This document shows, one piece after another, positions 20,869 to 61,164 of a stretch of 64,000 nucleotides of DNA. The notes beneath the pieces were generated by a model. The model was not told the origin of the DNA, ran no database searches, and worked only from the letters and a program-made list of their open reading frames with translations. The DNA is from Candidatus Sungiibacteriota bacterium (GTDB lineage: Bacteria; Patescibacteriota; Minisyncoccia; Sungbacterales; HO2-52-23): assembly GCA_016432465.1 (NCBI GenBank), contig CP066690.1, positions 57,233 through 121,232 on the forward strand, in the 5' to 3' direction. A program made the position numbers and the translations under genes. Every line of letters begins with the position of its first letter. Position 1 is the stretch's first letter.

Positions 20869-21206
20869 CTCCCATTCACCTCCTTTCTGAAGAACTAAAT
20901 TCCCGTGGCGGAATTGCCACGGGAATTATTTTCCAAAAGTTTTTGATTAAAACCTTCTTAGTTTAGACAATAATTTCCATGGCAAAATATTGCAAAACAC
21001 CGCAACGACGTGCGGTTCGCTTCACATTATTAAACATGGAACAAAGTTGCTGCATAATAATTGATCTTGGGTGCTAGCAATGGTATTCCGGCCCGCGCTT
21101 CGCTGAAGCTTCGGCGAGGCGAGCAAACCCTATCCAGCACATAACAAGTTATGTACTGGACTCCGTTCTCCCGCTTTCAGCGGGATCACTTCGCTTTCCC
21201 AACATT

Positions 21207-21325
21207 ACTGGCGTACCCTACTTTCCCAGGCGCGGATTGGCACCAAGTATCATTGGGCCTAGATGCTTTCACTACTGAGTTCGGAATGGAATCAGGTGGA
21301 TCACATCTAGGTAAAACACCAGCAA
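21207..21325 (-). rRNA. rrf: 5S ribosomal RNA
   Basis: reverse complement matches 5S core CCACCTGAttCCATtCCGAACTCAGtAGTGAAA...GCGCCTGGGAAAGTAGG; terminal helix pairs. Confidence 0.85.
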
Positions 21326-22509: not shown

Positions 22510-23130
22510 GTATGTTCGCTTCGCTCACAACGCGATACCAATATACGAATGGCATGCGAATGATACGAATTGCGAATTTCCTCTATTACTAGAGGCATGG
22601 ACTATATCTTCATCCCCCTGCATGCCTGCGGAAGGAGCTCGCGTATTATATTTTGCTTAAAGCAAAATATCTTTCCGAACTTTATTCGGAAAAGTCTCTA
22701 CGGGGTTAATGCTTTTTTTATAGAAGCTCTGGTTTCAGCAAACTTAGCGACATCTTGAATAGCTTGCTGAATTTCAGTTTCAATAATATCAACCGGTCGT
22801 TTCCCTGAATCAATCTCCGCATCAGTCCAATTTCTACGACCAATCGGGTCTTCCAATTGTTGAAGTCGTGCAACGAGCCTTGACGATGCCTCGCTCAACA
22901 AAAGATTATTTTCTTCCAATTGATTCAGAAGTTCTTGGTTGTTTAATTGTAATTCTTCTTTCATATGCATAACTTCCCTCGGTATTATCCTATCAAATTT
23001 GGTTCAAAAACTCAATAGGATTTCACCGATATTAGCGAGATTTTTATGCAGGATTACTCCTGCAGCACCCCGATGATCGTGATGGCCAGTCACGTGCAAA
23101 CTAGTTAACCAGAGAACTAGCTAACTAATA
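22510..23130 (-). mobile_element. intervening sequence in 23S near the conserved ...CACCUC/GAUGUCGG... peptidyl-transferase segment (intron class undetermined)
   Basis: conserved GGCACCUC and GAUGUCGGCUC exon blocks separated by ~620 nt; boundaries lack canonical group I/II termini. Confidence 0.5.
22698..22970 (-). CDS. small coiled-coil protein encoded within 23S intervening sequence (sense to rRNA)
   Basis: 90-aa ORF with RBS gagggaag; heptad-rich; no HE motifs. Confidence 0.35.
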   Translation of the reverse strand: MHMKEELQLNNQELLNQLEENNLLLSEASSRLVARLQQLEDPIGRRNWTDAEIDSGKRPVDIIETEIQQAIQDVAKFAETRASIKKALTP

Positions 23131-23511
23131 AACTATTGTTGAGGTGCCGAACTCCGCCGTCGATATGAACTCTTGGGCGGAACTAGCCTGTTATCCCCAG
23201 AGTAGCTTTTGTCTGATAATCTTTGGCCTTGTTCTAGAAAGCGATAAATACCCACACCTCGGAACTGAATCCGAAGCGTGAATAATTACCATGGCCATCG
23301 GTTCACTAAGCTCTGCTTTCGCACCTGCGCGGGATATCCCCCTTGCAGTCAAGCCGGCTTGTGCCTTTACACGTCCACCCCGATTTCCATCCGGGGTAAG
23401 CCGACCTTAATAGACCACTCCATTACTTTTTGGGAGTGTAGTGCCCCACCAAAACTGCCCACCAGACACTGTTCCAGTTGGGCTTCACCGCGAAGCCCAC
23501 AGTTAAGTTTA

Positions 23512-23640
23512 AGGTTAAAAGTTTATTGTTAAGGTTGTGAGTTGTTAGTTTAAGTTAATGTTTAACCTAAACCAAAAACTTACAACCTAAACTTACAGGT
23601 TGCCAGAGCAACCGAAACTTTAAACTTAAAACTGTCGTGT
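23512..23640. repeat. AT-rich nested-palindrome element inside 23S
   Basis: gttaaggttgtgag...tttaagttaatgtttaacctaaac... related to 25185, 27305, 27843 copies. Confidence 0.55.
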
Positions 23641-24027
23641 GAACACTGCGGTGTTCCCAACCGGTTAGAATTTAAAACTTCAAAGAGTGGTATTTCACTG
23701 ACGGCTCCTCTTGATCCGGAAACCAAGAATCAAAGCCTGCCACCTATGCTACGCATCAAAGTTCTAAACCCAATATCAAGTTGCAGTAAAGCTTCTGGGG
23801 TCTTTTCGTCTAACCACAGGTATCCGGCATCTTCACCGGAATTGTATTTTCACCGGGCTCCTCGTTGAGACAGTCCCCTAGTCGTTACGCCTTTCGTGCG
23901 CTTCAGAACTTACCTGAAAAGGAATTGCGCTCAATTACGTTATCACCGAGCACTCAATTTTGGATTTGACAAAATTGTCAAAATTGGTTATGTTGAATAT
24001 GGTACGTTCTACCTACTGGAGGTAAAC

Positions 24028-24237
24028 ATGAAGTTCAAGGACTTGGAGATTGGGGATCATTTTGTTCTCCCAAACCATATCCCAACCAGGAACGGTATCC
24101 CTTCACCCATCGATGCTGTACAGCTTGAGGTTTTTCGTAGGATCACCACTCATGGACGCATTAACGTGCTGTCCGTAAAATCTTTGGCTCCAGGATACGT
24201 TAACCATAACGCTCCGGTCATCAAACTTATCATGTGA
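24028..24237 (+). CDS. small protein (69 aa) encoded antisense inside the L1931 intron
   Basis: TTGACA(23966-23971)-17-TATGTT promoter, RBS ggaggt 24018-24023, ATG 24028, stop 24237, hairpin gccaccgccggtggc + TTTTT 24242-24262; cassette bounded by perfect 18-nt inverted repeat 23946-23963 / 24270-24287. Confidence 0.45.
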   Translation: MKFKDLEIGDHFVLPNHIPTRNGIPSPIDAVQLEVFRRITTHGRINVLSVKSLAPGYVNHNAPVIKLIM

Positions 24238-24348
24238 TTTCGCCACCGCCGGTGGCATTTTTAAATAATCCAAAATTGAGTGCTCGGATCCTCTATGTCG
24301 CCATAGAGATCGGACTATATCTTACAAACAGAAGTCAGGTGTTGGAAA

Positions 24349-24912
24349 TCAGAAGTCAGAATGCTTCCGACTTCCAATATCCGATGTCTGATATCTGTTG
24401 TTCTGGCGTATAGTCTCTGAGGATTCAAGATATTGAGATGGTTTCTTACGATTCATTTGCTCTACTGTCCTCGCAATTTCTTTCATACCCTTCTTGGTTA
24501 GATGGATTTTCCGTTCCATCATATCAAGAATTTTTATGAATCGTTTGAAGTCACTTTGTTTTGCAGTACGGAGCGGATATTTCTGAAAGAAAGGAATTAT
24601 TTTCTCACGTATATCTTTCGTAGACCTAACACAATAACGATATAGCGGTTCACGGTGATTATCGTAACGCTTATTGATGAAAATTTTTCCGCAGCCGAAG
24701 AATTTTTGTAATTCTTCAAGAGCGAATAAACTTTTTTCACCTTGCGTTACCACAAACTCCGGAAAAACCTGCCATCCATTTTTAAGAATCCTATTACGAA
24801 AGACTCCTACAGAGAAACATCCTTCTCCGTCTACAAAACCAGTTATCCATCCCAAATAATAATCTTGCCTTTCCTGCTGATTATCTGCACTGGACACATT
24901 TTTACTTGGCAT
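24349..24912 (-). CDS. LAGLIDADG homing endonuclease (single-motif type)
   Basis: LGWITGFVDGEGCF dodecapeptide motif, 187 aa, inside intron and sense to rRNA. Confidence 0.85.
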   Translation of the reverse strand: MPSKNVSSADNQQERQDYYLGWITGFVDGEGCFSVGVFRNRILKNGWQVFPEFVVTQGEKSLFALEELQKFFGCGKIFINKRYDNHREPLYRYCVRSTKDIREKIIPFFQKYPLRTAKQSDFKRFIKILDMMERKIHLTKKGMKEIARTVEQMNRKKPSQYLESSETIRQNNRYQTSDIGSRKHSDF

Positions 24913-25184
24913 AATTTTAGAAGATTTTATCCCCTAAGGATAATTATACCTTAGTAGTGCCAGATACTCCAGACTTTCCAGCATATAGTCCCGACGTTTC
25001 ATCTAAAAATTAGGATGAAGAAGTCGGGATCCCGATTTTACACTATGATTATTTTATAAATAGTGCATCGGGACCAGATTTTATTAAAGCAGCGCGCTTT
25101 CTACTTTAAGACCCTTATAGTTAGGGCCGACATTGACGAGGGCTTGATACCTAGAGCCGCGAGGCGGCCTCGTATGTTTATAAG

Positions 25185-25325
25185 TTTGTAGTTAAAAGTT
25201 TTGAGTTTAAGTTAAAAGTGATTAGTTTAAGTTAACGTTAACCTAAACATTAAACTAAAAACTTAAACTTAGGAGGCCGCTAGGCCGGAACCTAGAACTA
25301 AAAACTATAAACTAATCGAGGTCGC
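25185..25325. repeat. AT-rich nested-palindrome element inside 23S (near E. coli ~1860)
   Basis: ...gtttaagttaaaagtgattagtttaagttaacgttaacctaaac...cttaggaggccgctaggccggaacc... Confidence 0.6.
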
Positions 25326-26151
25326 CCCGCGACCAAGGTATTTAACCTTCTCGCATTGGTCAGGCGTCACCCCCCATACATCCTCTTACGAGTTAGCGGG
25401 GAGCTGTGTTTTTGGTAAACAGTCGCCAGGGGTACTTTTGTTGCAGCCCCTAAGCCCTTGCGGGCCGGGGCAGACCTTATTGCGAACTTACGGTCGCTTT
25501 TTTGCCGAGTTCCTTAACGAGGAATCACCCATTCGCCTTAGTGTTCTCCACCAACCCACCTGTGTCGGTTTACGGTACGGTCGCATGCTGATATTTTAGA
25601 CGGTTTTCTGGGAAACGCGCTTTGCAAAATTTCTAATGGATTGCTCCAAAAGATTTTCTCCGCGCTTGGAACCGAGCATTACCTCCATGGACGGATTTTC
25701 CTATCCACGTTCCTTACGCTAAGAACGAAAATCCAATAATTCGCTTTGCATACTGCGTTCCGTTACGCCATCAAAACAACATGCGGTGCTGGAATATTAA
25801 CCAGCTGTCCATCAGCTACGGCTTTCGCCATTGCCTTAGGACCGACTAACCCTCAGTTGATTGCCATTGCTGAGGAAACCTTGGGTTTTCGGCGGTCCGG
25901 GCTTTCACCGGACTTGCGGTTACTTGTGCCAACATTCTCTCTTCTTAACGCTCCAGTCGCCCTCGCGGGTCAACCTTCACTGCATTAAGAATGCTCTTCT
26001 ACTGCTTGCGCAACTGCCAATTGCCAACCGCTAACTCTTAATTTTTATTAGAAATTAGAAGTTAGAAATTCGAAGTTGCGCAAGCCCGTAGCTTCGGTAC
26101 AACGCTTAGCCCCGAGTATCTTTGGTGCAGTGTCTCTAGACGAGTGAGCTG

Positions 26152-26194
<43 letters not shown>

Positions 26195-26923
26195 CGCTGT
26201 TTGAGAAACTCCACCGCCTTATTACACTTAGCGTTGATTTAGGGACCTTAGCTGACGATCTGGGCTGTTGCCCTCTTGCACGATGGAGCTTAGCCCCCAC
26301 CTGCTGACTCTTGGAATAACTATACGCGCATTCGGAGTTTGGTTGGTTCGCCGAGCTTTCGCCCTTACGAACCATCCAGTAGCTCTACCTCGCGTATCGT
26401 ATAATCCAAGGCTAGCCCAAAAGCTATTTCGAAGAGAACCAGCTATTACCAGATTCGATTAGCTTTTCACTCCTTACCACAGGTCATCCGAAGGCGTTGA
26501 ACGACCCACCGGTTCGGGCCTCCCCCCGATGTTACTCGGGGTTCACCCTGCCCATGGCAAGCTCATCTGGCTTCGGGTCTTTTGAATACTACCTACAAAA
26601 GCTTCTTAGCTTATAGCTTCCTAGCTTCCTAGGAACGAAAATAAACTCGCACCTAAAAAGCTAAGAAGCTAAAAAGCTAGAAAGCTATTGAAAACGCGCT
26701 ATTAACACTCGGTTTCCCTACGACTCGGTGCCTCGCGGCACTTAGTCAAGCAGTATCCAAAAACTCGTTGGCTCATTCTTCAATAGGCACCACAGCAGAG
26801 ATCAGAGGTCGGATGTCGGAAATCAGAATTTTAGTTCCGACTTCTGATTTCCGATCTCTGATCTCCTTTGTGTCCTTGTAAGCATATGGTTTCAGGTACT
26901 ATTTCACCGCCCTCACCGGGCTG

Positions 26924-26962
<39 letters not shown>

Positions 26963-27304
26963 GTTCCGGGAGTATTTAGCCTTGGCGGACTAGTTCCGCC
27001 TGCTTCCTGCCCAGTCTCCATACGGGGCAGTACTCAAGAACCCCGACGCACTATTAGAAATCTAACAATGAAGTCGGGGTCCCGACTTTACGTCGGGATA
27101 ATAACTAGGAGCATGCAATATTTTTCAAATACGGGGCTTTCACCCTCTTTGGCCGGCCTTTCCAGGGCCGTTCTTCTAAATAAATCGCAACTTTTTGCTC
27201 CTTCGGATCGCTCCGAGCGCTATTATCTTACAACCTCCCGGTCTCCATTAAATAAATTCAATAGAAACCGGGATTTGGGCTGATCCCTTTTCGCTCGCCG
27301 CTAC

Positions 27305-27450
27305 TGGGGGAATATATCAGTTTATAGTTAAAGGTTTTAAGTTTAAGTTAAAAGTTATTAGTTTAAGTTAGCGTTAACTTAAACTTTAAACTAAAAACTT
27401 AAACTTAGGAGGCCGTTAGGCCGTAACCTAAAACTAAAAACTGACATTCT
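27305..27450. repeat. AT-rich nested-palindrome element inside 23S (near E. coli ~200)
   Basis: ~95% identical to copy at 27843-27975. Confidence 0.65.
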
Positions 27451-27507
27451 TTTCTTTTCCTCCGCTTACTGAGATGTTTCACTTCAGCGGGTATCGCGCC
27501 AAGCACT

Positions 27508-27695
27508 CATTTCTATACACTTGACAAATTTATAAATATAAACTATGCTAAGATCAACCAAGGGGGTTTGGTTACAACCACCGATAGCCTGGCCCGGTCC
27601 TACCGGACTTCCCAGGCCGCTGGTTGGTTAGACCCCCCTGCCACAGGTTTTCCCTGTGGCCTCTTTTTTGAGTACAGAAATGAGTGCTCGGCGAA
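27508..27695 (+). promoter_or_regulatory. antisense promoter-terminator cassette within 23S 5' domain expansion helix
   Basis: IR cgccaagcactcatttct / agaaatgagtgctcggcg flanks TTGACA(27531)-17-TATGCT and hairpin ccacaggttttccctgtgg + CCTCTTTTTT (27636-27668); no ORF with RBS. Confidence 0.4.
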
Positions 27696-27842
27696 TGCGT
27701 TTTACGCAAACGGGTTTCCCCATTCGGACATCGCCGGATCAAAGGTTGCTCGCCACCTCCCCGACGCTTATCGCAGGCACGCCACGTCCTTCATCGCCTC
27801 CGGAACCCTAGGCATCCACCATATGCTCTTAATTAATTCTGT

Positions 27843-55804: not shown

Positions 55805-57520
55805 ATGTCCATTCCGGTAAGGGGTTTTCGCCCCAGACACCCGGCGGATGTGGTGGGCGACATACAACCTAATGAATTTCGCGGTCTTAAAGTTACTTTT
55901 GTTAATATGCCCCTGCGCGAAACAGCCAAACCCCATGTACCTCCGGAAGGGCCGCTGATTCTGGCCGCCATATTACGTCTTTACGGAGCTATCCCCACGA
56001 TTATAGATCTTAACGCCTATAGAATCTGCGACGAAGAAGCCGGCCGACAAGGACTTGTTAACGGCCGGCACCTCACTTTTGAAGAAGCAGAAGATTTGCT
56101 GCGGCTTCATTTTAACCAACAGGGTGAGCAGGACATTGTGGCTTTTTCCGGAATGATAACGACTTTGCGCTGGCAGGAAAAAGTGGCCAAAATGATTCGC
56201 AGACTCCAACCGGATTGTTTTCTGGTTACCGGCAACGGCCTTGCTACAGAACTTAAAGCCGGACTTTTTAACTGGATGCCCGAACTTGACGCTATAGCCC
56301 ATTCAGAGGGCGATGATGTAATGATTGTTATGGCCCGGGATGTTAAAAGAATAAAAGAATTGGGGATGGAGAGGGCGGCGCGCTCGGGTAACTTGAGTCC
56401 TTACTATACGGGAGAAATGGGTGGCCGGCACCGATTTCTTTATGCCGGAGACAGACCCAAAAACCTTGATGCTGTTCCTTTTGGAGCGCTTGATCTTTTG
56501 GAATCCGATCCTTACGGCCGAAATTTGCTGGAAATATATATTACGAATCCGGTGTGGGGACTGGCAGCCAACAACAGTTCCGCCACCGCCTTTACCATGG
56601 AGCGAAGCTTAACCACAGTAAGTTCCCGCGGATGCCCTTATGCCTGCGCTTTCTGCTATCGCGGCGCGCAGGGTGAAAGAAACTATGGCATGCGCTCGGT
56701 CAATCATATAGCGCGCCAAATCCGTGAGTTTATGGACCGCTATAACATTGACTTTGTTGGTTTTCCGGATGACAATTTTGCCATTTCCAAACCGCGCTGT
56801 GCCGATTTCCCCCGTGTTTTTGCTGAATACGGCATCCGCATCCGTTGGGGCACGCACACGCGACTGGATGAAGCGGATCAGCGTATTATTCCTATGAGCG
56901 AATCGGGCTGTATCTATATTGGTTTTGGGGCAGAATCAGCGTCCGCGCATGTTCTGGGGCTAATGAACAAAGGCGGATTTATTCTGAAAAACGGCTTGAC
57001 GCCCATGCGGGTTCGCGGAAGAGAGTGGCAATTCCCTACTACCATGATAAATGGCATCCGCAACTGCCGCGATGTAGGGATTCACGCCAACTGCACTTGG
57101 ATCATGGCTTATCCCGGTGAGACGCTGGAAGATCTTAAAACCAGCGTTGCCTTTATTCTTTGGCAAGAAGAGCTGATGACCGAAGGACTTATACCCGGCA
57201 CACCGGAATACGAAATGGCCAAAGCAACCGTAAACCGCAAAATGTTTACGGCCACTTCCTACCCCGGAACAGCCATGTTTAGTGATCCTGCGGCGCGCGC
57301 TTTGCTCTCGCAAAACTTCGGAGTTTCTTTTGACGCTTCGGGAGAACCCATCTGTGACGAAGCATTCCACCATTATGTTGTGGAGCTTGATGATGCCACT
57401 AAGGTTTTGCATAATAAAGACGGCGAGCCCCTGAACTTTGGCGCGATGCCCATGGATCAATTTTTGGAAGCACGGGAATATGTTGATCGCGGAGAGATTG
57501 AAAGAATTCTAGAAATGTGA
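55805..57520 (+). CDS. B12-binding-domain radical SAM protein
   Basis: CPYACAFC (CxxxCxxC) rSAM motif after N-terminal B12-binding-like domain. Confidence 0.65.
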   Translation: MSIPVRGFRPRHPADVVGDIQPNEFRGLKVTFVNMPLRETAKPHVPPEGPLILAAILRLYGAIPTIIDLNAYRICDEEAGRQGLVNGRHLTFEEAEDLLRLHFNQQGEQDIVAFSGMITTLRWQEKVAKMIRRLQPDCFLVTGNGLATELKAGLFNWMPELDAIAHSEGDDVMIVMARDVKRIKELGMERAARSGNLSPYYTGEMGGRHRFLYAGDRPKNLDAVPFGALDLLESDPYGRNLLEIYITNPVWGLAANNSSATAFTMERSLTTVSSRGCPYACAFCYRGAQGERNYGMRSVNHIARQIREFMDRYNIDFVGFPDDNFAISKPRCADFPRVFAEYGIRIRWGTHTRLDEADQRIIPMSESGCIYIGFGAESASAHVLGLMNKGGFILKNGLTPMRVRGREWQFPTTMINGIRNCRDVGIHANCTWIMAYPGETLEDLKTSVAFILWQEELMTEGLIPGTPEYEMAKATVNRKMFTATSYPGTAMFSDPAARALLSQNFGVSFDASGEPICDEAFHHYVVELDDATKVLHNKDGEPLNFGAMPMDQFLEAREYVDRGEIERILEM

Positions 57521-57552
57521 TTTAAAAATTTAAACACCCCACGTACAATTAC

Positions 57553-57933
57553 GTGGGGTTAACTTTCTCCTACTACCAAAGGGCGAGAACACTGTTAAAG
57601 AAAATTATTATAACCACACTATCGGAGGGGGAAATAAAGTATTTTGCCGTGTTGAGGCCAGATGACCAAGCATTTTATCCCGATTTTATATTTCAGCTTA
57701 AAGACGGAAGTATAGGGATACTTGATATTAAATCGGGAAGAACTGCCGAAACTGGAGACGCCGCACCCAGAGCCGAGGCATTACAGAGGTTTATCACGAA
57801 GCAAAATAAGAGCGGCAAAAAGTTAATAGGCGGAATTGCCATTTATGTTAATGGCACTTGGCGATACAACGACAACGAAAAATACGAATATAACCCGAAA
57901 GATTTATCAAAATGGAAGGTGCTGGATTTATAG
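57553..57933 (+). CDS. hypothetical small protein, possible PD-(D/E)XK fold
   Basis: D...ILDIK(SG) pattern resembling D/ExK core; weak. Confidence 0.3.
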   Translation: MGLTFSYYQRARTLLKKIIITTLSEGEIKYFAVLRPDDQAFYPDFIFQLKDGSIGILDIKSGRTAETGDAAPRAEALQRFITKQNKSGKKLIGGIAIYVNGTWRYNDNEKYEYNPKDLSKWKVLDL

Positions 57934-57955
57934 TGAGTGGTGGAGTGGGGTAACT

Positions 57956-59005
57956 TTATTCACTTAACCAAAACCAGAATTTATTTTTTAATTCATTGCC
58001 AAATTTATGAGTATTCGCATGAGAAAGAACGCCGAGATAAGACTGGAGAGATTGTTCCAGTGTTCGTTTCGTAATAATACCGCTTTTGTATTCAGAAACT
58101 CTTTTATGCAGTTTCCTCAAAATTCGTTGTTTAGTTTTTCTCCGCAACAAGCGATGGTGTGGGAGAACAATATAGCCGAGAAAATCTACGCCCCAGTGCA
58201 ATTTGCGGATACTGACTTTTCTGGGATGAAGTTCCAAAGCCAGCCTATCGTGCAAAAATTTTCTGATTGGTTCAATAAGATTTTCAAGAAAAGTTTTGCT
58301 GTCAGAAATTATTACGAAGTCGTCTGTATAACGAACATAGTTTTTAATCTTCAAGCGGTGTTTAACAAATTGGTCAAACTCGTTGAGATAGATATTAGCA
58401 AAAAGCTGGGAAGTCAGATTGCCGATGGGCAGTCCCTTTGCTTGAAAAAGATTAGAGTATTCGGATTTGAGACTCTCTACGATTTCTTTAAGAACCAACA
58501 TCGCATCGGCGTCTTTGATTCGTTTTACAAGCAGGGTCATAAGAATAGTATGGTCAACCGTCCCAAAAAACTTCTTAATGTCGCATTTAAGAGCGAAGCA
58601 GGGCTTATGAATGTTGTGGCTGACCGCCTTCGTTATGCTGTCCAAAATATCTACTCCTTTATGCGTTCCTTTGCCCACACGACACGACAGCGAATGTGCG
58701 ATAAATGTCGGCTCAAAAATTGGATTAAGGACACTGAAAACTGCGTGGTGGAGCACTCGGTCTCTGACGATAGCTTTGTGAATGTGCCTCTGTTTGGGGT
58801 CTTGAATATAAAACGAAGTATATGTTCCGTGCTTATAATTTTTATTTTTCAAATCCCGATGAAGCTGAAAAATGTTTTGCTCAAACTCCCATTCAAACTC
58901 AACAACATCCCGTTTTTTCTTTTTATCGCTACTAAACTTATCCCACGCCGAAAACAGATTTTCCAGTGAGATGATTTTTCCAAAAACATTTTTATAGATT
59001 TTCAT
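57956..59005 (-). CDS. diversity-generating retroelement reverse transcriptase
   Basis: RT motifs incl. YTDD, and DGR-specific LPIGNLTSQ (IGxxxSQ); likely start MKIYKN at 59005 rather than track start 59104. Confidence 0.85.
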   Translation of the reverse strand: MKIYKNVFGKIISLENLFSAWDKFSSDKKKKRDVVEFEWEFEQNIFQLHRDLKNKNYKHGTYTSFYIQDPKQRHIHKAIVRDRVLHHAVFSVLNPIFEPTFIAHSLSCRVGKGTHKGVDILDSITKAVSHNIHKPCFALKCDIKKFFGTVDHTILMTLLVKRIKDADAMLVLKEIVESLKSEYSNLFQAKGLPIGNLTSQLFANIYLNEFDQFVKHRLKIKNYVRYTDDFVIISDSKTFLENLIEPIRKFLHDRLALELHPRKVSIRKLHWGVDFLGYIVLPHHRLLRRKTKQRILRKLHKRVSEYKSGIITKRTLEQSLQSYLGVLSHANTHKFGNELKNKFWFWLSE

Positions 59006-59008
59006 AAT

Positions 59009-59359
59009 ATGGATGATTTTGATATACCAATTTTCAAAATAACTTACGAGCTGTATAAGGAGTTTTATGCTTACCGAAATAATGTTAAGAAACAAGACCG
59101 CCATACGCTTTGGCAGAGATGCGAAAACATTACTTTAGATGTGTTGGAAAATTTGCTTTGGGCAAGTCAGCTTTCAAAGACTGAAAAACTACCCGTGTTA
59201 GAAAAAACCAGCGTCAAACTAAACTTTCTGCGAGTGTTCTTACGGCTTTGTAAAGAAGTAAAAGTTATTGATGTCAACAAATACATTAAGTGGCAGGAGA
59301 CGGTTGATGAAATCGGAAGACAGCTTGGTGGTTGGATTAGGTCAACTAAAGAGCGTTAA
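59009..59359 (+). CDS. avd: DGR accessory variability determinant (Avd, four-helix bundle)
   Basis: 116 aa; C-terminal ...WQETVDEIGRQLGGWIRS resembles bAvd ...EVGRILGSWIAR; divergent from RT. Confidence 0.65.
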   Translation: MDDFDIPIFKITYELYKEFYAYRNNVKKQDRHTLWQRCENITLDVLENLLWASQLSKTEKLPVLEKTSVKLNFLRVFLRLCKEVKVIDVNKYIKWQETVDEIGRQLGGWIRSTKER

Positions 59360-59406
59360 ATGAAATACCCTCGGAAAGGAGGGTATTTCACATTGACGGA
59401 GAATGA

Positions 59407-59524
59407 CTGCCGAGAGGCGGCCAGACCGATGTTGTAGTTGCGGTTGTCGTCCCAGTAGTTGTTGACATTGAGACCGTTCTCGTCGAAGTTGCCGACATTG
59501 ACACGGTTGCCGTCCGAAGTGACA
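59407..59524 (-). repeat. DGR template repeat (TR)
   Basis: 118 nt colinear with VR; all 15 mismatches fall on minus-strand adenines of TR. Confidence 0.85.
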
Positions 59525-59809
59525 TAGTTTGCCCATCCTCGTCCGTGGCACTGGAAATTGAGGTTTACTGCCATAAAGCTTATATCCTCTCCTTCCTGTA
59601 TTTTATTCGGGAGCAATCGATAGTATCGCTATCTCCACTAAAGATGAGCAAGAAGTTCTATCTCCATCTGGTTCACGCGCTATCGTAACCCGTAGGCGAC
59701 GATACTCTGGTGAAATCTCAAAGATGAGATGTCCTGCGAGGTGAAACCATAGCCGCACCTGCATTAGCAGAACATTTACAGAATAACTTTTTGAAAAACA
59801 AAAGAAAAG

Positions 59810-59839
59810 AGCCTCCGCCGAAAAAAATCGGACGGAGGC
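59810..59839 (-). terminator. GC hairpin + T-tract downstream of VR (DGR-associated hairpin / terminator)
   Basis: gcctccgccgaaaaaaatcggacggaggc; second hairpin gagggtcaagccctc at 59851-59866. Confidence 0.5.
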
Positions 59840-59879
59840 TCTAGGTTTCAAGAGGGTCAAGCCCTCAAGACTTCAAGGT

Positions 59880-60749
59880 TCAGAACTTCCGAGAGGCGGC
59901 CAGACCGATGTAGTAGTGGCGGCGGTCGTCCCAGTAGTAGTAGACATTGAGACCGCACTCGTCGAAGTAGCCGACATAGACACGGCGGCCGCCCGAAGTG
60001 ACACACTCGCAACGGGCATACCGTGAGAGGTTCACGAAGTTGCCTGTCTTACGGAAGACGAGCAGGTCTTTCGTGGCCTCGGTCATGGCAGACGGCACTT
60101 CGTAGTCGGCAGTGAGCATACGCACCTGCTCGTCGTAGGTCTTGTCCTCGGATTTCTGGACGATGTTCTGATGTAGCAGATACCACCTGAAGCTCATCGT
60201 GGTCTCCCTCGCAAACTTCTGCTCGGAATACCACGCACTCGGAGCGTAGGAGCCAAACTTCGGTTGCCCCGTGGCAGGATGAAGCTCCTGCAATTTCAGG
60301 ATGGTGAGCGGCTTGCCGTTGATGCGGTCTAGCCCCACGAAGGCGAAGTGGCAGTCCTTCACCACCTTGTCGCAGAGCGGGCAGGTGGAGTTGAGAATGT
60401 CCTCGCCCCACGGGAACTCGGCGACCTGACGGAGTTGCTTCTGACTGAAGTTCACGCCGTAGAGAGCTGACCAGTCCTCCACGCCAAAGAAGTTCTTGCC
60501 CATGACTGCACGGGCGAGCTTCTGGTGTATGGAGGCGTCGAGACCGCCTCGGAGCATGAACTCCGCCACCCGCTTGGCGTAGTCTGGTTCGGCACGAAGC
60601 CTTGCCAGATGGTCAGGGGTGACGCCGTGGTCTTGGAGCACCTTGAGAGTAGCCCCAAGCTCACCGAACTCTACTTTCCAGAGACCGCTTTGGGTTGTGC
60701 TTTTCATAGCACTTTCCTCCTTTTGTTGAATTTTCTCTCTTTGTCCCAC
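59880..60749 (-). CDS. DGR target protein (C-terminal variable CLec/FGE-like ligand-binding region)
   Basis: 289 aa; C-terminus CECVTSGGRRVYVGYFDECGLNVYYYWDDRRHYYIGLAASRKF parallels TR-encoded ...GNRVNVGNFDENGLNVNNYWDDNRNYNIGLAASR. Confidence 0.8.
   Translation of the reverse strand: MGQREKIQQKEESAMKSTTQSGLWKVEFGELGATLKVLQDHGVTPDHLARLRAEPDYAKRVAEFMLRGGLDASIHQKLARAVMGKNFFGVEDWSALYGVNFSQKQLRQVAEFPWGEDILNSTCPLCDKVVKDCHFAFVGLDRINGKPLTILKLQELHPATGQPKFGSYAPSAWYSEQKFARETTMSFRWYLLHQNIVQKSEDKTYDEQVRMLTADYEVPSAMTEATKDLLVFRKTGNFVNLSRYARCECVTSGGRRVYVGYFDECGLNVYYYWDDRRHYYIGLAASRKF
59886..60003 (-). repeat. DGR variable repeat (VR) at 3' end of target gene
   Basis: 118 nt; TR AAC (Asn) codons correspond to Tyr/His/Arg/Cys/Gly codons in VR. 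Confidence 0.85.
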
Positions 60750-61164
60750 TGAAGGACTTTAGAGAGAGGCAACCGTATCCGACGGCTTGCGGTCTCATCT
60801 CGGAATGAGACGAGCACCTTAGAAACCAAGTGTTTGGCGTCCAAAATGCTCGTCTCACTGATTTTCAATAAACACCATAATTATAGCAAATCGTCAACAA
60901 AAAGTCAATAGCGGTATTTTTCAAACAATAGTGAATGGTGCGGTAGGGTAAGTTTATGAGTTGGAATATTATCTCAAATCAGGGATATAAATATACGCAT
61001 TTTGTCGCTCAAAAATGGTTCTAACATTGTTCACAGTGCAGAGCGGGAATATGTGCAGAATTTGTATAATCCGTAGGCTTTAGTTCGTGAAATGGAGGGG
61101 GTATAAAAAGAGGCCGTAGCCCAAACAGGCCACGGCGCGCTGATTGTGCAATGAGCAGAAGCTC

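Follow-up and report, generated by a model that had tools for sequence, protein, structure and literature searches.

How the reverse transcriptase (RT) of a diversity-generating retroelement (DGR) finds its template, primes and stops has so far been worked out for one phage element, that of Bordetella phage BPP-1. In that system all of the RNA elements lie in the spacer 3' of the template repeat (TR) (Handa et al. 2024, bioRxiv 10.1101/2023.10.23.563531). An Avd-binding stem-loop directly follows the TR, the primer strand Sp53-56 (priming nucleotide A56) pairs with the TR 3' end, and the stop strand Sp59-70 pairs with the segment immediately upstream of the TR. Beyond the stop strand lie, in order, a small stem-loop, adenosines, a "thumb ring" of single-stranded RNA and the stem-loop that binds the RT. 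For bacteria of the candidate phyla radiation (CPR), Wu et al. (2018, PMC5758913) described Architecture B3, written TR-(avd)-RT with parentheses denoting the reverse strand; it was present in 90% of their CPR set, and co-transcription of TR and RT was reported not to be required. Here, we analyzed a DGR cassette in a stretch of 64,000 nucleotides from Candidatus Sungiibacteriota bacterium (assembly GCA_016432465.1, contig CP066690.1, positions 57,233 to 121,232 of the forward strand; this whole stretch is called the window, and all coordinates refer to it). We read the locus as a chromosomal DGR of the CPR-typical B3 architecture that varies the final 38 codons of a seemingly cytoplasmic protein, whose C-terminal domain has a C-type-lectin fold, and that uses a separate template RNA, and we put the probability of this reading at roughly 0.85. 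The layout of the cassette was known already, and what is apparently new is a conserved and apparently undescribed folded RNA located before the TR.

On the minus strand the TR (59525-59410) is followed by avd, encoded on the plus strand (59009-59359), and by the RT gene (59005-57956), which is the B3 order. Related loci were gathered via the target family, via the RT in IMG/VR and via RT alignment in metagenomes. In 80 metagenomic loci sharing this layout, the RTs were 47-73% identical to the one described here, and avd was oriented opposite to the RT in 84 of the 85 related loci that had enough flanking DNA. Because B3 is a published architecture and recurs in nearly all of these relatives, the opposite-strand avd, which the initial annotation of this DNA had called unusual, is not unusual for the lineage. 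Its description of a complete DGR was confirmed, as an RT, an Avd, an adenine-specific pair of TR and variable repeat (VR), an end resembling the initiation of mutagenic homing (IMH) sequence, a hairpin after the VR and a target of C-type-lectin fold are all present. The cassette itself is one more example of a described class and carries little weight alone.

A repeat search returned a direct repeat of 119 nt with 88% identity (59406-59524 and 59885-60003). The clean TR/VR pair on the minus strand measured 116 nt (TR 59410-59525, VR 59889-60004) and contained 14 mismatches, 14 of 14 at TR adenines, with a probability by chance of ~6e-9. The repeats had previously been given as 118 nt with 15 differences, all at adenines. 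The adenine restriction was upheld on realignment, whereas the count and the edges were not; inside those earlier boundaries there are 13 adenine mismatches and one non-adenine mismatch at the 3' edge (59409, C to A). All 30 TR adenines occupy codon position 1 or 2 and none position 3, and the TR contains 8 AAC and 2 AAT codons. The VR peptide differs from the TR peptide by the replacement of Asn by Tyr, His, Arg and Cys, as had been noted before, and additionally by a change of Asp to Gly. Among five closely related genomes, the VRs varied at 30 of 30 TR-adenine positions compared with 8 of 86 other positions, and the TRs of the same genomes differed at ≤2 nt. Hypervariable VRs beside near-constant TRs are the population signature that would be expected of adenine-directed mutagenesis. 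The two repeats share an 18-nt, A-free and GC-rich 3' end (GGTCTGGCCGCCTCTCGG; 59889-59906 in the VR), the IMH-like end, and diverge beyond it. A short hairpin with a 5-bp stem, GAGGG-CTTGA-CCCTC (59852-59866, minus strand), lies 22 nt past the GC-rich VR end and showed compensatory stem changes in two relatives (L006 and L010; alignment A3, by eye). In the Bordetella and Legionella DGRs a hairpin or cruciform at the equivalent site is needed for efficient retrohoming. The TR/VR pair is the only one in the window, where no second VR was found.

These repeats also bear on whether the cassette could be a fossil, in which the VR was diversified in the past and which is inactive now in this genome. 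Related copies are decaying: one locus (L001) has kept target, VR, RNA, TR and avd and has no RT, in another (L002) the RT is shortened and its alignment ends at residue 139, and three (L003, L005, L011) retain only a target homologue and a remnant of the RNA domain, with TR, avd and RT not nearby. Here, however, RT and avd are full-length open reading frames (ORFs) with conserved motifs, all RNA helices are intact, and the exclusive placement of the differences at adenines leaves no drift at other bases within the repeat. We therefore consider a fossil unlikely.

The ~355 nt between the terminator-like hairpin of the target gene and the TR were strongly conserved, even in loci whose proteins were 56-66% identical, and the region was also conserved beside TRs accompanied by targets unrelated to the one described here. 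For 36 loci, the 245 nt before the TR (59527-59772, minus strand) were aligned with MAFFT; the alignment was not structure-guided. The RNAalifold prediction comprised 51 pairs, with compensatory double changes at 46, and its covariation term was -17 kcal/mol. Standard pairs occupied 95.0% of the cells, compared with 67.5% after shuffling and 38-49% when the partner was slid by 1-3 columns. Double-change cells numbered 568, compared with 186 (shuffled) and ~90 (slid), and the covariation score was 0.818, compared with 0.276 and ~0.15, respectively. None of 500 shuffles attained the observed pairing values. Several pairs in this 5' domain were represented by four or five different Watson-Crick or wobble types, and since G-U pairs were frequent, the RNA strand is assigned to the minus strand, which is that of the TR. 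The 245-nt element is thus solidly predicted, from covariation, to constitute a structured RNA family.

The predicted domain comprises helices P1 to P8. The P2 hairpin (59739-59760) and the P4/P5 hairpin (59673-59713) are both capped by a C(UAYG)G loop, and a near-invariant single strand, CGAAUAAAAUACAGG, is located at 59595-59609. Helices 6-8 were paired in 97.7-99.1% of cells, and individual positions showed as many as 5 pair types. From the 36-locus alignment we built a covariance model, which recovered the domain in 71 of the 74 loci that had a divergent avd/RT pair and enough DNA, and its matches included many loci outside the alignment. With the same model, no match was obtained in the more distant DGR loci that were searched, which are not of B3 type and have RTs of ~30% identity. 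No Rfam 15 family matched the domain in 58900-60100 at E<=10, where only chance-level matches were returned, and a scan of the whole window at the Rfam gathering thresholds reported 23S and 5S rRNA only. Two minus-strand ORFs in this region, 59603-59860 and 59356-59616 (85 and 86 amino acids), were rejected as genes, as they overlap the covarying RNA and the TR; the latter is open only because the TR preserves the reading frame of the VR.

Two helices involving this domain bracket the TR. The 5' strand of P6 (UUGCUCAUCUUU, 59640-59651) pairs with GAGGAUGGGCAA at 59529-59540, so that P6 encloses the 3' half of the domain, and 3-4 nt separate the end of P6 from the TR; it is the candidate helix for stopping complementary DNA (cDNA) synthesis. 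Within the domain, block X (GAUGGAGA, 59661-59668) pairs with block X' (UCUCCGUC, 59395-59402), which lies 8 nt past the end of the clean TR/VR homology, and X is the candidate primer-side strand of an initiation duplex, with the conserved A that ends it on the 3' side (59661) as a candidate priming nucleotide. Because MAFFT loses the register of X' across subgroups, this pairing was assessed by a permutation test on duplex energy. In 29 non-redundant loci the cognate X/X' combinations averaged -13.6 kcal/mol compared with -10.9 kcal/mol for non-cognate ones (p=5e-5). Compensatory sets were found in locus L022, GAUUUUAGA:UCUAAAAUC, and also in L118, L091, L124 and L110. The repeat boundaries coincide with these helices. 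In the 19 loci for which a VR was found, the TR/VR homology started -3 to +7 nt downstream of the aligned end of the 5' domain, which is set 2 nt beyond the P6 3' strand, and in 15 of them it started at +1 to +4. It ended at most 5 nt from the start of the 3' pairing segment X' in 14 of the 19. The adenine-exclusive mismatches in these loci are partly built in, because the score penalizes non-adenine mismatches; the boundaries are not affected. With P6 and X:X' both formed with the upstream domain, the TR would be a loop held between two helices.

The juxtaposition of RNA and TR is also what speaks to the suggestion that the 245-nt region stands outside the RT machinery, either as a 3' untranslated region or regulatory element of the target gene or as an unrelated small RNA carried along with the cassette. 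Its position directly after the target terminator, here and in most relatives, would suit such a role, and its tie to the RT is a matter of sequence only. The region, however, adjoins TRs with non-homologous targets and always abuts the TR, and in one relative (L103, described below) it comes after avd and not after a target. In addition, P6 ends where the TR/VR homology starts, X covaries with the segment after the TR, and the region is absent from the distant non-B3 DGR loci searched. A role apart from the RT is thus highly improbable.

Signals that may delimit a transcript of its own were found on both sides of the RNA and TR. A -10-like hexamer, TATTCT (59780-59785, minus strand), lies 9 nt before the first RNA helix, reads TATACT or TATAAT in relatives (alignments A4 and dom5) and is a candidate promoter of the DGR RNA. 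At the other end, a terminal 11-bp hairpin (GAAAUACCCUC / GAGGGUAUUUC, 59362-59389, minus strand) is located between X' and the avd stop codon and takes up most of the ~50 nt that separate the TR from that codon. In this hairpin 82% of the cells were paired, compared with 66% after shuffling and 34-56% after sliding, and 11 of 11 pairs showed compensatory changes. In relatives it takes the A-tract/stem/T-tract form of a bidirectional terminator, and it may serve as such a terminator, as a stem-loop for Avd binding, or as both. Across loci, a near-constant ~410-445 nt separated the first helix from the avd stop. We infer that the TR lies in a compact unit of ~415 nt, from the -10-like box to the terminator-like hairpin, with the ends of the transcript placed from these signals.

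The initial annotation had proposed a different arrangement, in which TR and RT share one long minus-strand RNA that must cross avd in antisense to reach the RT, with the needed RNA elements downstream of the TR. TR and RT are indeed on the same strand here and in nearly all relatives, no promoter-like site for the RT was found in 58800-60900, and the T-tract after the terminal hairpin is weak here. Furthermore, Handa et al. (2024, 10.1101/2023.10.23.563531) searched for stem-loops immediately 3' of the TR and reported them for many DGRs, those of CPR bacteria included. Several observations run counter to this arrangement. The short interval between TR and avd stop is mostly a covarying hairpin with terminator form in relatives, and both TR flanks pair with the upstream domain. 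Moreover, in L103 (Ga0100398_1030301) the order is target-VR, (RT), avd, RNA domain, TR; the RNA 5' domain, TR and VR are on the avd strand and opposite to the RT. The avd/RT pair is thus inverted relative to the RNA, TR and VR, and co-transcription of TR and RT is impossible in this locus, in agreement with the conclusion of Wu et al. (2018, PMC5758913) that it is unnecessary. The requirement for read-through was not supported by these data, and a shared long transcript is decidedly unlikely given a ~415-nt unit bounded by conserved signals. Because avd and RT are flipped together in L103, the head-to-head pair is predicted to behave as a module that can take either orientation relative to the template RNA. 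The Bordetella system reportedly works in vitro with separately made RNA, a result said to come from Handa and co-workers in 2018.

The order of elements in the 5' domain was compared with that of the BPP-1 spacer. In the BPP-1 sequence, C(UACG)G caps the stem-loop that binds Avd. The CPR domain presents P2/P5 with their C(UAYG)G caps, X, the P6 5' strand, P7, CGAAUAAAAUACAGG and P8, which is the same order as in BPP-1, and the consensus of the Rfam family Phage_DGR has aAAuACA at the place corresponding to CGAAUAAAAUACAGG. By this analogy, it is plausible that the CPR 5' domain is the functional equivalent of the BPP-1 spacer RNA, situated before the TR instead of after it. The relation would be one of circular permutation, because the spacer-like strand connects with the TR at its upstream flank and not at its downstream end. 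The DGR survey of Handa et al. (2024, 10.1101/2023.10.23.563531) covered 40 nt on the upstream and 100 nt on the downstream side of each TR, and because of these limits it would have missed an upstream domain. In a covariance-model search P5 was aligned to the Avd-binding stem-loop of BPP-1; this was set aside as anecdotal.

The following scheme would account for these features. A separate non-coding RNA of ~415 nt would be made from the minus strand, roughly from 59773 to 59358, and would carry, from 5' to 3', the folded domain of 245 nt, the TR of 116 nt, a short flank and the terminal hairpin. Two helices would clamp the TR, P6 ending right before it and X pairing with X' right after it. 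The RT-Avd complex, produced from the adjoining head-to-head gene pair, would bind this RNA. Synthesis of cDNA would start at the X:X' end, misincorporate opposite template adenines and halt at P6, and the cDNA would then take the place of the VR, with the GC-rich end common to both repeats and the hairpin after the VR as guides. We infer both the binding of protein to the RNA and the site of priming.

A number of results weigh against this reading. Transcription and activity of the cassette in this genome are predicted from sequence alone, and membership in the family is no proof of activity, because some relatives (L001, L002) have decayed. The X:X' pairing is not assessable column by column, as X' is out of register in the MAFFT alignment. 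A consensus promoter and terminator scan (58800-60900) called no promoter and called neither hairpin as a terminator. The terminal hairpin was missed because its T-tract is short here, and the promoter and terminator roles are accordingly proposed from conservation, since the consensus scans call none. The weakness of the T-tract after the terminal hairpin (ATTTAA) would also permit read-through toward the RT. For RT and avd, neither a Shine-Dalgarno sequence nor a promoter was evident in the window. With respect to the BPP-1 spacer, our covariance model gave no significant match (E 0.54 and 3), and the Rfam Phage_DGR model gave no match in 58900-60100 at E<=10; because neither model matches, the proposed equivalence is one of topology and order, not of detectable homology. 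As a positive control, the Rfam model (RF03022) scored the BPP-1 spacer at 104.7 bits. Finally, an upstream or permuted DGR RNA was not described in the DGR literature searched, and Paul et al. 2017 may already describe it.

The RT gene (57956-59005, minus strand) encodes 349 amino acids and matched Pfam RVT_1 with 78.3 bits. The protein contains the motifs PIGNLTSQ and YTDD, which correspond to the DGR-type [I/L/V]GxxxSQ and YxDD, and the DGR motif was invariant across 10 relatives; the DGR-specific IGxxxSQ motif named in the initial annotation is thus present. In an NCBIfam scan the RT was far under the cut-offs of the group II intron, retron, Abi and Drt models. The avd gene (59009-59359, plus strand) encodes 116 amino acids, is convergent with the DGR RNA and head-to-head with the RT gene. 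Its product scored 58.5 bits against Pfam PF22296 bAvd (cut-off 40) and 76.4 bits against the DGR Avd model NCBIfam NF033474, slightly below the cut-off of 80. As had been described, avd and RT diverge from start codons 3 nt apart, with the RT ATG at 59005-59003 and the avd ATG at 59009-59011. In well-aligned relatives, to which this measurement was confined because automatic calls in distant relatives are noisy, the two start codons were -2 nt (shared CATG), 0 nt (CATATG) or 2-6 nt apart. The head-to-head avd/RT pair is a conserved module that has already been described. Unlike the target gene, which has a canonical AAGGAGG, RT and avd have no Shine-Dalgarno sequence. Since their starts are near-abutting and lack this sequence, promoter and ribosome-binding signals would have to lie inside the first codons of the partner gene, or the mRNAs would be leaderless. 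A low-GC stretch past the 3' end of the RT gene contains a plus-strand ORF of 126 amino acids (57553-57933) with no Pfam or NCBIfam match.

The target gene (59880-60707, minus strand) encodes 275 amino acids, with an N-terminal helical domain and a C-terminal C-type-lectin/formylglycine-generating enzyme (FGE)-like domain. The latter has the C-type-lectin/FGE fold with the VR at the 3' end of the ORF, as in DGR targets. The start was assigned to the ATG at 60707 and not to the GTG at 60749, because a Shine-Dalgarno sequence AAGGAGG (60716-60722, minus strand) lies 8 nt upstream of the ATG and because the 100%-identical NCBI protein, a hypothetical protein of Candidatus Sungiibacteriota, has 275 amino acids. 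More than 300 homologues were found; those with a source name were from Parcubacteria, and no Pfam domain was detected in any of them. An alignment of 41 homologues was well conserved save for the last 38 residues and was hypervariable at the columns of the TR AAC codons. No hydrophobic segment was found in the target by Kyte-Doolittle hydropathy (maximum 19-residue mean 0.76), which is consistent with the lack of a signal peptide reported by the initial annotation. An N-terminal helical segment of ~50 amino acids (60560-60700, residues ~5-50) recurs alone in four other loci (L016-L019) with 41-62% identity, in one of them (L018) ~1 kb upstream of another B3-type avd/RT cassette, and may be a shared module. 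Downstream of the gene, the terminator-like hairpin (59794-59842, minus strand) is formed by AGAGCCTCCGTCCG / CGGCGGAGGCTCT at 59808-59842 and followed by a T-rich run at 59794-59807. It was kept in alignment A3, and the strict consensus scan missed it because its stem is bulged.

With regard to the genomic setting, a phage context was considered and rejected, the neighbors being metabolic genes. The G+C content within the cassette region (57450-60750) was 56-61% in the target gene and 30-41% in RT and avd, with ~50% in the flanking chromosome. Genomes labelled Sungiibacteriota, Giovannonibacteria and other Parcubacteria carry target proteins with ~90% identity, a distribution suggestive of recent horizontal spread. 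Elsewhere in the window, the 23S rRNA gene (23046-27842, minus strand) spans 4.8 kb compared with a 2.9-kb model and contains an ORF (24349-24912) for a LAGLIDADG homing endonuclease (Pfam, 93.5 bits). Because of this span and the internal ORF, it is taken to be an intron-bearing rRNA gene, a type often found in CPR bacteria. A distance of 1.7 kb separates the 23S gene from the 5S gene (21205-21324).

An RNA upstream of the TR that clamps it in place would, if true, explain how the commonest type of CPR DGR works without a spacer. It would also offer a natural test of which RNA contacts are essential, and a compact, transferable unit of ~415 nt for use in engineered diversification systems.

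Among described RNAs, the retron msr/msd RNA is similar in being a structured non-coding RNA tied to its own RT as template. Retron and BPP-1 RNAs are both template and, via an internal 2'-OH, primer (Handa et al. 2024, 10.1101/2023.10.23.563531). A TR/VR pair, adenine mutagenesis and an Avd are, however, all absent from retrons. A further comparison is with the Rfam family RF03022 Phage_DGR, which is the RT-10 motif of Weinberg et al. (2017, PMC5737381). It is likewise a structured RNA beside a DGR TR, with a UACG-capped stem-loop, the same element order and an AAAUACA-containing single strand after a small stem-loop. It differs in comprising 127 nt located 3' of the TR, whereas only ~50 nt separate TR and avd here. 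Because the RF03022 model, which is the family's own test, finds nothing at this locus, the CPR RNA is not a member of that family.

The CPR DGRs of Architecture B3 (Wu et al. 2018, PMC5758913) share with this locus the gene order, the orientations, a Parcubacteria/CPR host, a single adjacent target and a chromosomal location. There is no difference in layout, and our addition is the conserved folded RNA that precedes the TR. The BPP-1 DGR (mtd-VR, avd, TR, spacer, brt) resembles the present one in the adenine-specific transfer from TR to VR by an RT with Avd, in a target of C-type-lectin fold with a C-terminal VR, in the GC-rich repeat end and in the hairpin after the VR. In both, a single RNA strand pairs with the two TR flanks, and beyond this strand come a small stem-loop, a single-stranded stretch rich in A and another stem-loop. 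In contrast to BPP-1, avd is here inverted and downstream of the TR, the spacer-like RNA (245 nt, with the extra helices P1-P5) is upstream of the TR, and the element resides on a bacterial chromosome and not in a phage, with a target that has no export signal. The broader proposal is that throughout the B3 clade, mostly CPR, the RNA scaffold for positioning, priming and stopping is a circularly permuted form of the BPP-1 DGR RNA, accompanied by the inversion of avd and constituting a new family absent from Rfam; for the clade as a whole, we regard the odds as about even.

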